Source of the DNA: Spirochaetia bacterium
GTDB taxonomy: Bacteria > Spirochaetota > Spirochaetia > UBA9216
Reading direction: 5' to 3'
Length of the DNA stretch: 64,000 bases
Assembly: GCA_963677925.2 (NCBI GenBank)
Contig: CAXXYH010000004.1
Coordinates: forward strand, 352,001 to 416,000
The position numbers were made by a program, and so were the translations under genes. The notes under the pieces were generated by a model. The model saw nothing but the letters and a program-made list of their open reading frames with translations, did not search any database and had not been told where the DNA came from. Of this stretch, positions 43,404-48,607 are shown in pieces (the first letter of the stretch is position 1; every line of letters begins with the position of its first letter).

Positions 43404-45401
43404 TTATTCACCACCCTGAATGACCTGGCCGCGGAAAACCTTTTTTACAGCATCAACATGTTCCTGATGATCCTGGCCGCTTTCCTCGTCGCGGTTGATC
43501 TTTAATACTTCAACCTCGATCTGGTATGACCTGCCGGTCTGTTCATTAATTATTTCGTTTATAACCTGTCTATCGTTCTTTACGACTGAGGCTGTATATC
43601 CGTTTTCAAAACTCAAACAGAGCTTTCCGCCGTTAACGGTCCATCTCACCGACTGCTCTACCGCAGCGGCAAGTGTCAGCTTGCGCTTCCTGATACCTTC
43701 AAGAATGCGGCTCTTCTCATCCGAGCTGAATCCCCCGCCGCTTCCGGCCACTGTTGACTGAACAGCAGCTGATGTCGGTTCCGGTGAGGCATAAGCCGGA
43801 GCTGTCTGTGACGGAGCTGCGGGCATTGACGTTGGAGCCGCAGGGGCTGCTGCCTGAGCAGGAGGTTCAGAAACAGGCGGATCATCCACAAATCTTTCGT
43901 AGTAATCCTCATCCTCTTCATCATCGTCATAATCATCCGGATCAAAGGCGCCGCTTACAGCCGGCTTCTGTACCGGAGGCGCCTGCTGTTGCGCTGCGGG
44001 CTGCTGAGACTCTGCCGGAGCCTGTCCAAACGGCTGAGACTGGGGTTCAGGCCGTCCAAGCTGAACGGAAGGAGCATCATCCTTAACCAGAGGCGCATTC
44101 TGCTGTACCTGAGGCTGCACCGGCTGTACGGGTGCCGAAGGAGCTGCAGCAGCTGCCGGAGCAACCGTTTTTTCAACCTGAACCTGTGCCTGTACAGGAA
44201 CCGAAGGCTGAGTTTCAGTCTGAATCGCAGATTCAGAAACAGGGACTGCTTTTGCACCTGAAATTGCACGGCCTTTCAAGGCTTCAAGTCTGTCATATAT
44301 TTCTGCCGGAGAAATCCATGTACTTATATCTGAAAGAAGACTCAGAAGAAGCTCCAGCTCAAAGCGTTCATTAAGCGAATAGCGGACATCTCTGTAAAAC
44401 TTAAAAATTAGCTCAAGAGCCTTTTCAAGCTGGGGGCGTGAAAAAGTTCTTACCGCCGTATCGGAATATCTTGCCTTTGCATAGCCCAGCAGAGCCTCGC
44501 TGTCCGCACCGCTTTTGATAAAAAGCAGGCTTCTAAAGTATTCGGCAAGGTCTACAGCAAACTGCTCTACCGAAACTCCGCCGGCAATAATCTCCGAACA
44601 GAGTCTTATTACTTCCGCGGCATTCCTGCCGGCCATGGCATCGGCAATTGTATTCATGCTGTCCAGGCCGACCAGGCCCAGTTTCTCGCGTATTATTTCA
44701 AGGTTGATATTTCCATCTGAAAAGGCAACAACCTGATCAAAAAGCGTATAAGCATCACGCATAGAACCGGTAGCTTCCTTAGCTATCCAGAAAAGAGCGT
44801 CATCCTCCGCAGCGACATTCATTTCACGGCAGGCATCGGAAAGGCTGTTTTTAATCCTCTCCAGCCCAATCAGCCTGAAATTAAACTGCTGACAGCGCGA
44901 ACGGATTGTAGCCGGAACCTTGTGAATCTCGGTTGTTGCAAAGATAAAAATAATATATGGAGGCGGTTCTTCGATGGTTTTCAGAAGCGCGTTGAATGCA
45001 CTGTTTGAAAGCATGTGAACCTCATCGATAATATACACCTTGTAACGGCAGGAATTGGGCGCGAAAAGCACCTCGTCCTTGATTTCACGAATATCGTTTA
45101 CCGAAGTATTTGATGCTCCGTCAATCTCAATCACATCAAGGGCATTTCCCTTTGCTATCTCGGTACAGTTGCTGCAGACTCCGCAGGGTTCGGGCGTCGG
45201 ACCGTTTTCACAGTTGACCGCCTTGGCAAGAATTCTTGCTGCGGATGTTTTTCCGACGCCGCGTGGGCCTGAAAAAAGATAGGCGTGGGCAATCCTACCA
45301 GCCTTAATAGAGTTCTTAATAGTTGAAACTACAAATTCCTGTCCGACCAGCTCTTCAAAGCCGGACGGACGACGTCTTGATGCGGTTACTTCATATGCCA
45401 T
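43404..45401 (-). CDS. dnaX: DNA polymerase III subunit gamma/tau
   Basis: GPRGVGKT, zinc motif, IDEVHML, SRC, GSMRD; long Pro/Ala/Gln and acidic linker. Confidence 0.96.
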   Translation of the reverse strand: MAYEVTASRRRPSGFEELVGQEFVVSTIKNSIKAGRIAHAYLFSGPRGVGKTSAARILAKAVNCENGPTPEPCGVCSNCTEIAKGNALDVIEIDGASNTSVNDIREIKDEVLFAPNSCRYKVYIIDEVHMLSNSAFNALLKTIEEPPPYIIFIFATTEIHKVPATIRSRCQQFNFRLIGLERIKNSLSDACREMNVAAEDDALFWIAKEATGSMRDAYTLFDQVVAFSDGNINLEIIREKLGLVGLDSMNTIADAMAGRNAAEVIRLCSEIIAGGVSVEQFAVDLAEYFRSLLFIKSGADSEALLGYAKARYSDTAVRTFSRPQLEKALELIFKFYRDVRYSLNERFELELLLSLLSDISTWISPAEIYDRLEALKGRAISGAKAVPVSESAIQTETQPSVPVQAQVQVEKTVAPAAAAAPSAPVQPVQPQVQQNAPLVKDDAPSVQLGRPEPQSQPFGQAPAESQQPAAQQQAPPVQKPAVSGAFDPDDYDDDEEDEDYYERFVDDPPVSEPPAQAAAPAAPTSMPAAPSQTAPAYASPEPTSAAVQSTVAGSGGGFSSDEKSRILEGIRKRKLTLAAAVEQSVRWTVNGGKLCLSFENGYTASVVKNDRQVINEIINEQTGRSYQIEVEVLKINRDEESGQDHQEHVDAVKKVFRGQVIQGGE

Positions 45402-45473
45402 ACGCGAAAATTGTATATGATAATCGGGCCGTTATCAAGCTCGGAGTTGATCAGGATTCGGGCGTATCTGTGT

Positions 45474-46424
45474 TTATGCGGGTTTTACTGGAATACAGAT
45501 ATCGAATACATGCTTCCCTTCAGGGTGTTGTTTCGGATCATTTTTTGAGAGTTCGTAGCTCAGACCGTCAGCAGCCTCATATCCGCTGTCCGGCAGCCAG
45601 TCAGCACAAACCCAGTTCCAGGCATCACCATACTGATCAACATCAACCTCAAACTCTACCATTGCATACTTTCCGGCAGGCATGAGCATTTTACCAACAT
45701 CACCGCTAACCTCCGTGTCAGGTGGCACAGTCAGACAGACGCTGGTCCGCAGCTTTGTCTCATCAGTCAGGTTAGGATCATCATGATATACGCTCATCAG
45801 CTTTGTATCCGGAAAATTAAGCAGATCCCTCGCTCCTGCCCATTTGAAAAGCTTTTCATACAGGCCGGCAAATAATGCCTCATCCCCGGCATAGGGCCCG
45901 ATATAACGCACATAGGCTACCGTCATATCCTCAACATTTTCTACTCTGACATTTCTGCCTTCTACTTTCATTCGGTTCCTCCGTTCATCAATAATCTTAT
46001 GATCAAGATGATACGGCTTTGAACCGGCCTCAGCTTCACAATTCTTGCCCTTCATTTGCTCAATCTTGCTGTCCGCTTTGCAATCCTTGCTGAGAAGGCT
46101 TAAACGCCAGTCTGTTGCAGACTGATCATAATGTTCACGAAAGCTTCTGGCAAAAACAGATGATGAGCTGAATCCGCAGTCCAGTGCAATTTCAGTAATA
46201 TTCTTCTCTGTGCCGGCAAGCATACGGGCGGCTTTTTCCAGCCTGAGTCGTTTGATGAAAACATTCAGCGGCTCTCCCATAAAGGCTGTGAATATCCTGT
46301 GGAAATGATAGGGTGAAAACAAAGCGACAGCCGCCAGTCGATCGAGGTTCAGCTCCTCATCGAGGTGTGAATCTATATAGTCTATTACTCTGTTTATGCG
46401 CTGTATGTAATCCTTACTGCTCAC
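45474..46424 (-). CDS. AraC-family regulator with C-terminal GyrI-like ligand-binding domain
   Basis: FSPYHFHRIF, RLRLEKAA, IALDCGFSSSSVFARSF; C-terminal YIGPY, HDDP, GKYA, WLPDSGY, DICIPV. Confidence 0.93.
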   Translation of the reverse strand: MSSKDYIQRINRVIDYIDSHLDEELNLDRLAAVALFSPYHFHRIFTAFMGEPLNVFIKRLRLEKAARMLAGTEKNITEIALDCGFSSSSVFARSFREHYDQSATDWRLSLLSKDCKADSKIEQMKGKNCEAEAGSKPYHLDHKIIDERRNRMKVEGRNVRVENVEDMTVAYVRYIGPYAGDEALFAGLYEKLFKWAGARDLLNFPDTKLMSVYHDDPNLTDETKLRTSVCLTVPPDTEVSGDVGKMLMPAGKYAMVEFEVDVDQYGDAWNWVCADWLPDSGYEAADGLSYELSKNDPKQHPEGKHVFDICIPVKPA

Positions 46425-46815
46425 AGCACTCCAGCCACTTTTTCACTTTTTCCCTGAACTCACCGATTAGGAGATCAAAATCGGGCTCATTGATTCCCGC
46501 CCATCGGAACTCCACATGTTCATCAGAGAGTTTTATATCGAAATCCTTTGTACTGCATTTGTAAATAATTCCGGTGATGTGCCAGTTATCAAGAAAGGCG
46601 TTCCAGGTATCAACTATAACTTCCGGGATAATTTTCATTCCGGTTTCTTCGAAAACTTCCCTGGTTACTGCCTGCTCGGCAGTCTCTCCGAATTCAATAT
46701 GTCCACCCGGTAATTCCCAGACCGTGTTCCGATCAGTATTACGACGAAGAATCAGAACACGGCCGTCAGGATCCTGAATTAATGCCTTAATTGAAAAAGT
46801 TATTCTCCTTCCCAA
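46414..46815 (-). CDS. NUDIX hydrolase
   Basis: Nudix box PGGHIEFGETAEQAVTREVFEETG; LSDEH. Confidence 0.9.
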   Translation of the reverse strand: MGRRITFSIKALIQDPDGRVLILRRNTDRNTVWELPGGHIEFGETAEQAVTREVFEETGMKIIPEVIVDTWNAFLDNWHITGIIYKCSTKDFDIKLSDEHVEFRWAGINEPDFDLLIGEFREKVKKWLECCEQ

Positions 46816-46886
46816 AACGTTTTTCTCCTGATTTTTTCTGGTTAATCAGTGTATCAGCAGTTTCAGGATTTGAAAACTTTTATTGA

Positions 46887-47582
46887 TTAGAAAGCAAAGC
46901 TTCCCCCTATACCGCAGGCTATGCCTCGCATCATAAGATAGGTATTAGTTGACTCAATCGTTTTAGCAGCGGTAAGCCCCGTTGAGGGTCCAGTAAGATA
47001 GGATGCAGTCAATGTTAGCGGATTATAAATATCCCTGTACTCAGCAAACAGATTAACAGTTACCTGTTTGATCTTAATACCCAGAGATCCGCCGGCAAGC
47101 CATCCGTAACCGAAGGGTGCACTTGCTGAAAACTCAGTAAATCCGGCATATTCATCTGCCGCAGCAACATCGTCCGCCGCCCAGCCTTCAAGCGGAGTTA
47201 ACGTCGCATTCCAGCTCCCGGCGCCTCCTCCGAATGCCTTTATAACCACCGGCCCCATTTCAAACTTCAGCTGTAGTTTGATGTAGGCAAGGAAGTTATC
47301 AGCTATAAACCATGGCTTTGAAGGCGATACCGCATTCCCGTCCACTGATGCACCCTCAACCATATAACCGTGAAATTTACAGTAATCAAAGCCGACAGGA
47401 ATCTCAAGAAACTTACCAAGCCCGAGTGAAGTGCTTAGGCCGGATGTCAATGCGACAGCTCCATCATCATAAAGATATAGGCTTTCAGGCACAAATACTG
47501 AAATCTTTGTACCTGCTTCCTCAGCAAAAACAGCACTTCCTAGAATCAAAACTGTGCAAATTAAAACAGCAATTTTTTTCAT
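46887..47582 (-). CDS. Secreted hypothetical protein, possible OM beta-barrel
   Basis: Signal peptide ending AVFA, AGGAG RBS, C-terminal Phe. Confidence 0.65.
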   Translation of the reverse strand: MKKIAVLICTVLILGSAVFAEEAGTKISVFVPESLYLYDDGAVALTSGLSTSLGLGKFLEIPVGFDYCKFHGYMVEGASVDGNAVSPSKPWFIADNFLAYIKLQLKFEMGPVVIKAFGGGAGSWNATLTPLEGWAADDVAAADEYAGFTEFSASAPFGYGWLAGGSLGIKIKQVTVNLFAEYRDIYNPLTLTASYLTGPSTGLTAAKTIESTNTYLMMRGIACGIGGSFAF

Positions 47583-47657
47583 ATAATTTCTCCTACAGTA
47601 ACCTAAGTATAGTTAACCATAAGAGCAAAGCAAGCAGTTTCAACGTAATTAGAAACC

Positions 47658-47700
47658 TGTGGATAACATGTGGATAAATTATGGAAAAGCATGTGAATAA
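47658..47700. promoter_or_regulatory. Cluster of tandem DnaA boxes
   Basis: TGTGGATAA at 47658 and 47669 (perfect), TATGGAAAA at 47680, TGTGAATAA at 47692. Confidence 0.75.
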
Positions 47701-47780
47701 AATTATAAAAAACATAGACCCGAAGCCTCGAGTCTTCGAGCGAGCTGAGAGATATCTGTTATATACCTGGTAAATAAAAA

Positions 47781-47882
47781 CGCCGCCAAGCTTACTGCGG
47801 CTCAGTAAAACACCACTGACCGCTGCTTCCTTCCGGACCTGACGGGGTTGGGTAGTGCGTACTAGCACAGGGCCTGACGGCG
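47781..47882 (-). ncRNA. ffs: Signal recognition particle RNA (small bacterial SRP)
   Basis: Helix-8 motif GTCAGGTCCGGAAGGAAGCAGC; closing stem cgccgtc/ggcggcg followed by a U tract. Confidence 0.95.
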
Positions 47883-47888
47883 AATAAA

Positions 47889-47973
47889 CGGAGAGAGGGG
47901 GATTCGAACCCCCGGTACCTTTCGATACACACGCTTTCCAAGCGTGCGCCTTCGACCGCTCGGCCATCTCTCC
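47889..47973 (-). tRNA. tRNA-Ser(GGA)
   Basis: GGAGAGA acceptor, cacgc-TT-GGA-AA-gcgtg, long variable arm, GGTTCGAATCC; CCA not encoded. Confidence 0.95.
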
Positions 47974-48010
47974 AGATATGAAATAATGATGTTTCTCCGA
48001 CTCTTAGCTT

Positions 48011-48098
48011 CGGAGAGAGAGGGATTCGAACCCTCGGTACAGACGAGCTGTACAACGGCTTTCGAGGCCGCCCGATTCAACCACTCTCGCATCTCTCC
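48011..48098 (-). tRNA. tRNA-Ser(CGA)
   Basis: gcggc-CT-CGA-AA-gccgt, long variable arm, T-loop. Confidence 0.95.
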
Positions 48099-48213
48099 CA
48101 GATGACTGCAAAAAAATTCTACATATCACTGTGGTTGAGTTTTTTAGGAAAACCATGTTTTCATAAAAAATCTCAAAAAACAAAATTATTCCGTCAGGAA
48201 TAATTTTGTTTAG

Positions 48214-48287
48214 TATACCCAAGAGGACTCGAACCTCCGACCTTTAGGTCCGCAACCTAACGCTCTATCCAGCTGAGCTATGGGTAC
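48214..48287 (-). tRNA. tRNA-Arg(GCG)
   Basis: GTACCCA acceptor, GCTCAGCTGGATAGAGC D-arm, ttagg-TT-GCG-GA-cctaa, GGTTCGAGTCC. Confidence 0.93.
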
Positions 48288-48406
48288 AAGGGAATAAGAA
48301 ATCTGAGATTTCTTATTTTGAAAAATCTTTGATTTTTCATTTTTAGTATTCAATAAAAAAGAATACTTCAAGGTTTATATTATACTGTGTTTACAGTAAA
48401 AAAAAT

Positions 48407-48493
48407 CGGAGAGGGAGGGATTCGAACCCTCGGTACCGTTACCAGCACAACTCCTTAGCAGGGAGCCCGATTCAACCACTCTCGCACCTCTCC
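48407..48493 (-). tRNA. tRNA-Ser(GCT)
   Basis: gctcc-CT-GCT-AA-ggagt, long variable arm. Confidence 0.95.
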
Positions 48494-48522
48494 GAATGAA
48501 ACCAGCCCTTACGGGCAAAATA

Positions 48523-48607
48523 CGGAGAAGGTGGGATTCGAACCCACGGAACCTTGCGGCTCAACGGTTTTCAAGACCGCCTCCTTCGACCACTCGGACA
48601 CCTCTCC
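48523..48607 (-). tRNA. tRNA-Ser(TGA)
   Basis: gcggt-CT-TGA-AA-accgt, long variable arm. Confidence 0.95.

Follow-up and report, generated by a model that had tools for sequence, protein, structure and literature searches.

The short forms of two MerR-family regulators, TipAS of the TipAL/TipAS pair and AlbAS of the AlbA/AlbAS pair, have been described as the ligand-binding domain alone, which sequesters the drug. Within the AraC family, the virF gene of Shigella has been described to contain a gene-internal promoter, from which an N-terminally shortened product, VirF21, is made besides VirF30 and feeds back. NolA of Bradyrhizobium is another known relative of the same idea. For the di-domain regulator STM3175 of Salmonella, the ligand-binding domain by itself confers tolerance to albicidin, and autoregulation has been raised as a possibility (PMC10414762). 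Here we describe a gene for a regulator with an AraC-type DNA-binding domain and a GyrI-like domain (AraC-GyrI), located on the minus strand at 45474..46424 of a 64,000-nucleotide stretch of DNA from a Spirochaetia bacterium (contig CAXXYH010000004.1; the whole stretch is hereafter referred to as the window). Judging from the conservation of its nucleotide sequence, the linker between the two domains probably carries an intragenic promoter of the activator type, which would make a stand-alone GyrI-like isoform of 165 amino acids (aa).

Signals in the interdomain linker and their conservation

The open reading frame (ORF) at 45474..46424, stop codon included, starts with GTG and encodes a protein of 316 aa, consisting of a DNA-binding domain, a linker and a GyrI-like domain. 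The DNA-binding domain with two helix-turn-helix (HTH) units (HTH_18, residues 30-107, encoded by 46104..46337 on the minus strand) was matched by Pfam PF12833 (HTH_18, E = 1.2e-19) and PF00165 (HTH_AraC, E = 3.5e-15), and residues 158-314 were matched by the GyrI-like family PF06445 over profile positions 2-155 of 155 (E = 3.5e-36). The best match in PDB was STM3175 (7R3W, E = 1.5e-24), followed by SoxS, RamA, Rob and MarA, with SbmC (1JYH) also being matched; by sequence similarity, the product is a fusion of the Rob/STM3175 type, in which an AraC DNA-binding domain resembling that of MarA is joined to a GyrI-like domain. In the AlphaFold2 (AF2) model, with a mean predicted local distance difference test score (pLDDT) of 85.5, the DNA-binding domain includes seven helices and the GyrI-like domain is of high pLDDT. 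Residues 114-136, which span the repeats described below, are of pLDDT <50, and this part of the linker is predicted to be disordered.

The DNA coding for this linker contains, on the minus strand, three direct repeats with an exact 21-nt pitch, of which the 16-mers read AGCAAGGATTGCAAAG from 46091, AGCAAGATTGAGCAAA from 46070 and GGCAAGAATTGTGAAG from 46049. The corresponding 21-nt units are referred to as box 1 (46071..46091, AGCAAG-N6-AAA; promoter-distal), box 2 (46050..46070, AGCAAG-N6-CAA; the best conserved) and box 3 (46029..46049, GGCAAG-N6-GAA; promoter-proximal, with its AA overlapping the -35 position). The -35 position itself is occupied by AAGCTG (46036-46031), overlapping the third repeat and located 17 nt upstream of the -10-like hexamer TATCAT (46008..46013). 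Given the usual spacing of 5-8 nt between -10 and the start point, transcription is predicted to start at 46000..46004, which implies a 5′ untranslated region (UTR) of about 30 nt. A Shine-Dalgarno (SD) sequence, GGAGG (45978..45982), precedes by 6 nt an in-frame ATG (45969..45971), which encodes M152 of the long form; the distance from -10 to this ATG is 42 nt, with SD in between. The predicted short isoform of 165 aa (45474..45971) includes the complete GyrI-like domain. All the positions of repeats, -10, -35, GGAGG and ATG given in a preliminary description of this DNA, made from the window alone, were exact on the minus strand, and the ATG at 45971 is in frame with the AraC-GyrI ORF, leaving 165 aa with the GyrI-like domain as had been claimed.

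In order to examine these signals in homologs, we carried out a protein search, which gave 4576 relatives of the regulator, and took 80 genomic loci. A total of 76 were codon-aligned with the window gene, making the set of 77 sequences to which the counts below refer unless the metagenome is named; two partial matches (L047 and L071), one with a length not a multiple of three (L060) and one with an in-frame stop soon after the match start (L041) were dropped. L060 and L041, the latter with a Latescibacterota title, possibly represent broken genes or errors of assembly. According to record titles, the 76 homologs span at least a dozen phylum-level groups, including Spirochaetota, Bacteroidota, Ignavibacteria, Calditrichota, Neomarinimicrobiota, Chloroflexota, Myxococcota, Desulfobacterota, Acidobacteriota, Bacillota, Actinomycetota, Latescibacterota and Acetothermia; records of Carboxylicivirga marina, Marinifilum flexuosum and Draconibacterium orientale are among those titled by species. 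For replication, 80 metagenome loci were reduced to 77 unique and new sequences after removal of one that did not span the linker and two duplicates. The analysis covers 153 sequences (76 homologs plus 77 from metagenomes) out of thousands of family members.

Counting positions from the first base of box 3, the module in the family consists of two or three boxes of the consensus nGCAAk-N7-mAA at 21-bp pitch, followed by TAnnnT, SD and a start codon. GCAA was found at +1 to +4 of box 3 in 69/77 and in box 2 in 74/77 (together with AA in 68/77), and AA at +13 and +14 of box 3 is visible in the sequence logo. The window gene carries three direct repeats as first noted; in the family only two boxes are near-universal, box 1 being present in 34/77. 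TAnnnT is located at +36 to +41 in 65/77, an SD of GGAG type is present in 59/77, and a start codon stands at the M152 column in 67/77, with a distance from box 3 to ATG of exactly 78 nt in 47/77. By an alignment-free search, the 76 coding sequences gave 83 occurrences of the two-box pattern in sense orientation, and none was detected in the antisense strand or in the 400-nt flanks. The same was observed in the metagenome set, where the two-box pattern was present in sense orientation in 59/77 and in antisense in 0/77. The combination of two boxes and TAnnnT was found in 48/77 metagenome sequences, in all 48 in codon phase, and among these 48 the first in-frame ATG was at 78 nt in 22 and SD was located before ATG in 36. 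Near-matches were present in most of the sequences failing the strict pattern. Five members with a short linker (L139, L148, L157, L163 and L165; 286-293 aa in total) carry neither boxes nor -10, indicating that the long linker goes with the module. Some of the short-linker members still show GGAGG or ATG near the start of the domain.

At the protein level, 45 aligned relatives with 51-70% identity share the linker pattern SKxxKxxSKxxxxxSKxxKD...Y...QxWRxxMK, in which M152, R149 and Y138 are each conserved in at least 90%. The codon alignment, however, indicates that it is the nucleotide sequence of the linker, and not its peptide, that is conserved. The first codon of every box is NGC whichever residue it encodes: serine is AGC in 21/21, 58/58 and 43/43 for boxes 1, 2 and 3, arginine is CGC in 5/5, 10/10 and 16/16, and glycine is GGC. 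The second codon of the box is AAG or AAT, and the fifth is NAA, glutamine being CAA in 47/47 and lysine AAA in 36/36. As within-gene controls, S37 is TCN in 75/77, and S228 and S280 are mixtures of AGC and AGT. The preliminary description had predicted AGC to be favored over TCN in the repeats; its use turned out to be exclusive. Serine, arginine and glycine thus replace each other as NGC, and lysine, glutamine and glutamate as NAA, and by these substitutions the S/K peptide repeat (the SK-x5 repeat of that description) is a by-product of selection at the DNA level, as had been supposed.

The same holds for the downstream elements. When the third-position information was calculated for 311 well-filled codon columns, the highest values after tryptophan and methionine were those of linker columns 119, 130, 126, 123 and 139, each of which holds 4-11 types of amino acid. 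The median codon column gave 0.19 bit, indicating that synonymous sites are otherwise saturated. Column 139, the codon after Y138, includes 11 residue types and T at the third position in 70/76; this T, combined with TAY of Y138, makes TAnnnT. At the column of R149, which encodes GGAGG, arginine is AGG in 43, AGA in 8 and CGN in 1 of 52, whereas AGG accounts for 210/1413 (15%) of the other arginine codons, and ten other conserved arginine columns are mostly CGN. GGAG is kept 6-7 nt before ATG in spite of the variation in the encoded residues (W-R, R-R, W-S, R-S, M-E, Q-E and G-R), and serine at the SD column is AGY, never TCN. The conservation of -10, SD and internal Met together with the repeats, as initially proposed, was thus found for each element, SD being held by the choice of codons. 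Taken at the level of the alignments, these observations demonstrate nucleotide-level selection on boxes, -10, SD and ATG, with fixed spacing and fixed strand.

The -10 element was found in two forms. Promoters of Bacteroidetes carry TAnnTTTG at -7, and classical SD is reportedly lacking (PMC7366714). Among our 77 sequences, 34 were labelled as Bacteroid-titled by hand from record titles; TAnnTTTG was present at +36 in 22/34 of these, a Bacteroidales-type subset, against 1/43 of the others. This element is encoded as Tyr-Phe-Cys, and its phenylalanine codon is TTT in 20/20, compared with a TTT to TTC ratio of 388:213 at the other phenylalanine codons of the same genes. SD is missing in 12/34 Bacteroid-titled sequences against 6/43 others. 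A host-matched -10, which appears to switch with the host sigma factor, is hard to explain except by promoter function. The family constitutes a natural experiment in promoter recognition, in which the same module is combined with either a sigma-70-type -10 or a Bacteroidetes-type -7 element.

Within the single sequence, the repeats are weak when taken alone, and the weight of evidence lies in the homologs. The 21-bp repeats were reported neither by a generic repeat finder (seed 6) nor by Tandem Repeats Finder (minimum score 30), being too weak for both, and the TATCAT/AAGCTG pair was not called by a sigma-70 promoter scanner. The scanner instead flagged TTGCCA-17-TATGAT (46153-46125, minus strand; 10/12 positions), which lies within the region coding for the DNA-binding domain. 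Three copies of GCAAG at 21-nt pitch occurred once in the 64-kb window and in 0/100 shuffles, and two boxes plus TAnnnT occurred once in the 5.04-Mb genome and not at all in 5 shuffles; no other tandem boxes with -10 were present in this genome.

Geometry of the putative promoter and a stand-alone derivative

The boxes resemble the binding sites of Rob and MarA at class II promoters, which are about 20 bp in length with two recognition elements separated by one turn of the helix. In the robbox of micF, GCAC forms the A element and CAAA the B element, the latter overlapping -35, and Rob contacts -47G and -45A, plus the T's opposite -34 and -35 (PMC9178005). Class II marboxes are in forward orientation and overlap -35 (PMC12052159). 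In the E. coli K-12 sequence of micF, the distance from G of GCAC is 12 nt to the first A of CAAA and 35 nt to the first T of -10 (TAGAAT). The AraC-GyrI family exhibits the same distances, with G at +1, AA at +13 (12 nt) and TAnnnT at +36 (35 nt). The two types of site are alike in the two-part sequence GCAn...AA(A), the forward orientation and the overlap with -35. They differ in that the A element of the family is GCAA instead of GCAC, a change of one base, in that two or three tandem sites at 21-bp pitch are present instead of the single site at micF, and in that the whole promoter is located inside a coding sequence, in codon phase. No consensus of -35 was detected among the 77 sequences, in which +13 to +18 reads AAGnnn; a class II promoter that depends on an activator would be expected to look like this (PMC12052159, PMC9178005).

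The DNA-binding domain agrees with this type of site. Residues S37, R43 and R93, identical in all the 45 homologs compared, align, with an offset of 3 in an ungapped match to 7vwy_G, with S34, R40 and R90 of Rob, which contact the robbox (PMC9178005). At the position of Rob Q39, the AraC-GyrI regulator carries H42.

The araI1-I2 sites of araBAD are direct repeats for AraC at 21-bp pitch, the proximal one overlapping -35, and AraC is bound there as a dimer, held together by a separate dimerisation domain. The preliminary description had compared the linker repeats with araI1/I2, and this likeness stands for the 21-bp pitch and the overlap with -35; the box sequence and the exact distance to -10, in contrast, match the Rob/MarA class II site of micF, and fit a monomeric protein of the MarA/Rob type better.

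A natural stand-alone derivative was found in the same phylum as the window. At locus L169 (1336-1980), a gene for 166 aa, with 58% identity to the GyrI-like half, begins at the ATG homologous to M152 and keeps TATATTGA and TGGAGGAGG upstream, together with GGAGG. An in-frame TAA is located within the former box 3, the DNA-binding half is gone, and the gene stands 145 nt after an unrelated gene. This arrangement shows that a gene can begin at the internal start, and suggests how single-domain GyrI-like genes such as ygiV may arise from fusions by 5′ deletion. The ygiV gene of E. coli encodes the ligand-binding domain only, in comparison with the di-domain STM3175 of Salmonella (PMC10414762). 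E. coli YgiV, with 24% identity over 94 aa, is too distant to be informative, and no GCAA boxes were seen upstream of its gene (L081:5233-5284, E. coli K-12). In this same interval, ygiV follows ygiW after 52 nt and GGGAGG is located 4 nt before its ATG. Three other candidates for genes of the ligand-binding domain only, L168, L071 and L152, were rejected, L168 being cut off by the contig end and the contig ranges of L071 and L152 indicating the same for these two.

Proposed mechanism and alternative explanations

We propose that the DNA coding for the interdomain linker harbors a second expression unit. The unit would consist of two or three tandem robbox-like sites, a -10, a GGAGG-bearing 5′ UTR of about 30 nt, and an in-frame ATG, the last site being placed in class II position over the missing -35. 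An AraC-type activator occupying the boxes would recruit RNA polymerase to the intragenic promoter, so that the element would function as a promoter and be activated rather than repressed, and the short transcript would be translated into the 165-aa GyrI-like protein. The activator is, most economically, the full-length product of the gene itself, because the cis element accompanies the gene from phylum to phylum and the gene's own DNA-binding domain belongs to a type that recognizes such sites; the gene's own product would be the only specific factor guaranteed in every host. In analogy to TipAS, AlbAS and the ligand-binding domain of STM3175, the short protein may bind and buffer the inducing compound and thereby feed back on the sensor.

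For the complete one-gene circuit, we see about even chances: the sensor would bind the sites in its own linker and drive a class II promoter for its free ligand-binding domain, this arrangement having been kept through cross-phylum transfer and re-tuned to the host sigma factor. In this case, the linker peptide would owe its existence mainly to the need to translate the promoter. The same proposal includes, for part of the family, a possible block of short-product synthesis from the long mRNA by an anti-SD sequence. CCTCC-type anti-SD 5-mers were found in the 15 nt before -10 in 22/77 sequences, compared with 144/3944 (3.7%) background windows. They stand at +21..+35 from box 3 in L003, L011, L021, L043, L054, L079 and others, and are unclear in the window (46028-46014). 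In the folds of 39 sequences, SD was paired at 3.8 of 5 nt in the long RNA, 2.2 in the short transcript and 2.9 with the upstream part shuffled (Wilcoxon p = 4e-4, a significance that is overstated for these related sequences). As a lead only, translation of the short protein from the long mRNA could be prevented by the anti-SD.

Several observations weigh against an intragenic promoter under the control of its own gene product. By strict definitions, all five features of the module are present together in only 49/77, conservation being incomplete, and L028, L062 and L078 are without any of them. Absence of the promoter and absence of the start were not significantly associated among the sequences (Fisher p = 0.18). 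In the 400-nt upstream regions of the 76 homologs, boxes are no more frequent than in control regions (10 in 29.8 kb). A single box with TAnnnT is not enriched in the genome of the window (73 against 60-77 in shuffles), and nothing independent ties the box to the AraC-GyrI DNA-binding domain. The recognition helix is intact in sequences that lost the boxes. GGAG is kept in 22/34 Bacteroid-titled sequences (for instance, as GGAGG 6 nt before ATG in L020, L027 and L031), which is puzzling in view of the reported lack of classical SD in that phylum. Residues 142-151, just before M152, were modelled by AF2 as a helix with moderate confidence, and part of the W/R conservation near M152 could be due to selection on the peptide. 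In addition, the sequences are phylogenetically related and non-independent, a problem that the within-gene control columns mitigate and do not remove.

Among the alternatives, the one that survives best takes the boxes as operators for negative control, at which the regulator or a paralog blocks elongation or represses a constitutive internal promoter. The sites are indeed within the transcribed region with the last one overlapping the promoter, VirF21 has been described to autoregulate virF negatively, and the gene of L169 keeps the -10 though its boxes have decayed. This explanation appears unlikely, however, because neither a -35 consensus nor an extended -10 supports constitutive activity, and because the boxes are oriented and spaced like the class II marbox/robbox sites from which activation takes place.

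We rank below it, as a doubtful explanation, internal translation without any internal promoter, in which SD and ATG would be used on the full-length mRNA as in TipAS/AlbAS and the boxes and TAnnnT would serve otherwise. Of all the elements, SD and ATG have the strongest support, and the short forms of TipA and AlbA have been described as second in-frame translation products. Such a mechanism leaves unexplained the conservation of the nucleotides of GCAA...AA and TAnnnT at fixed distances, the base-exact agreement with the class II geometry of micF and the switch to TAnnTTTG in Bacteroid-titled sequences, and the anti-SD in 22/77 and the greater pairing of SD in the long RNA would disfavor initiation there.

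It is improbable that the conserved letters act in RNA or bind an unrelated host factor, as a translation enhancer or the site of an RNA-binding protein. The region is A-rich and predicted to be unstructured, which would suit such a role, as would the strand specificity; RNAalifold gave 0 conserved pairs for 24 of 46 ungapped sequences plus the window. A host factor, however, would have to be conserved across at least a dozen phylum-level groups, an RNA signal leaves the -10 dependent on the host sigma factor unexplained, and the motif has the two-element form and the spacing of MarA/Rob sites on DNA. Selection on a basic, S/K-rich linker peptide, or a functionless, decaying fossil of a regulator-target fusion, is very improbable even though the peptide looks conserved in protein alignments and an origin by fusion is plausible, since the residues vary while the nucleotides are fixed (S/R/G as NGC, K/Q/E as NAA, and 11 residue types with T at the third position), the saturation of synonymous sites elsewhere implies that a fossil would have decayed, and the segment is predicted to be disordered.

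Genomic neighborhood and comparison with known regulators

Upstream of the regulator on the minus strand (45474-48607) are five tRNA genes and the small signal recognition particle (SRP) RNA (47781-47879). Between the SRP RNA and dnaX (43404-45401) are located a 231-aa ORF, for which no Pfam match was obtained, a NUDIX hydrolase gene (46414-46815), which overlaps the GTG start of the regulator by 11 nt, and the AraC-GyrI regulator gene. Since the pairing of SRP RNA and dnaX is common in bacteria, these three genes may be an insertion between the two. In the 72-nt gap after the stop of the regulator, a promoter-like sequence, TTGATA-17-TACAAT (45410-45438, minus strand), stands just upstream of the dnaX start, and a 10-nt inverted repeat (45465-45474/45492-45501) spans the stop codon of the regulator.

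In the open-access literature searched, we found no report of an internal promoter, start or isoform for AraC-GyrI or GyrI-like regulators. The closest solved protein, STM3175, has the same order of domains, but its linker is about 10 aa in length, compared with about 45 aa in the regulator of the window, and the words 'internal', 'isoform' and 'start codon' are absent from the main text of its description (PMC10414762). VirF21 of Shigella is translated from a leaderless mRNA, starting 1-2 nt before ATG, and keeps the DNA-binding domain, whereas an SD-bearing leader is predicted here and the predicted short GyrI-like form is without the HTH domain; conservation across phyla was not found among the descriptions of virF accessible to us.

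If the proposed promoter is real, the linker represents an unusually clear case of overlapping codes, in which binding sites, promoter, ribosome site and start codon are selected inside an ORF, and what appears as a conserved protein motif is a reflection of signals in the DNA. Many genomes would then be predicted to encode a further protein, of about 165 aa, that has escaped annotation, and the origin of single-domain GyrI-like genes would be explained by a simple 5′ deletion of fusions, as at L169.

The AraC-GyrI system resembles the TipA and AlbA pairs in its working and is not a member of them. As in these pairs, one gene would give rise here to a long sensing regulator and a short ligand-binding form. 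TipA and AlbA carry, however, a MerR-type DNA-binding domain, a coiled coil and a TipAS-type effector domain of another ligand-binding fold, whereas the gene in the window gave only AraC and GyrI-like matches in Pfam. Their short forms have been described to arise by alternative translation, with the autoregulated promoter being located upstream, whereas the promoter and activator sites appear to be inside the ORF in the AraC-GyrI gene. If confirmed, the intragenic promoter would mean that long/short pairs like those of TipA and AlbA can also be produced at the level of transcription, and that this design reaches into the very large AraC-GyrI group, including antibiotic binders such as STM3175.

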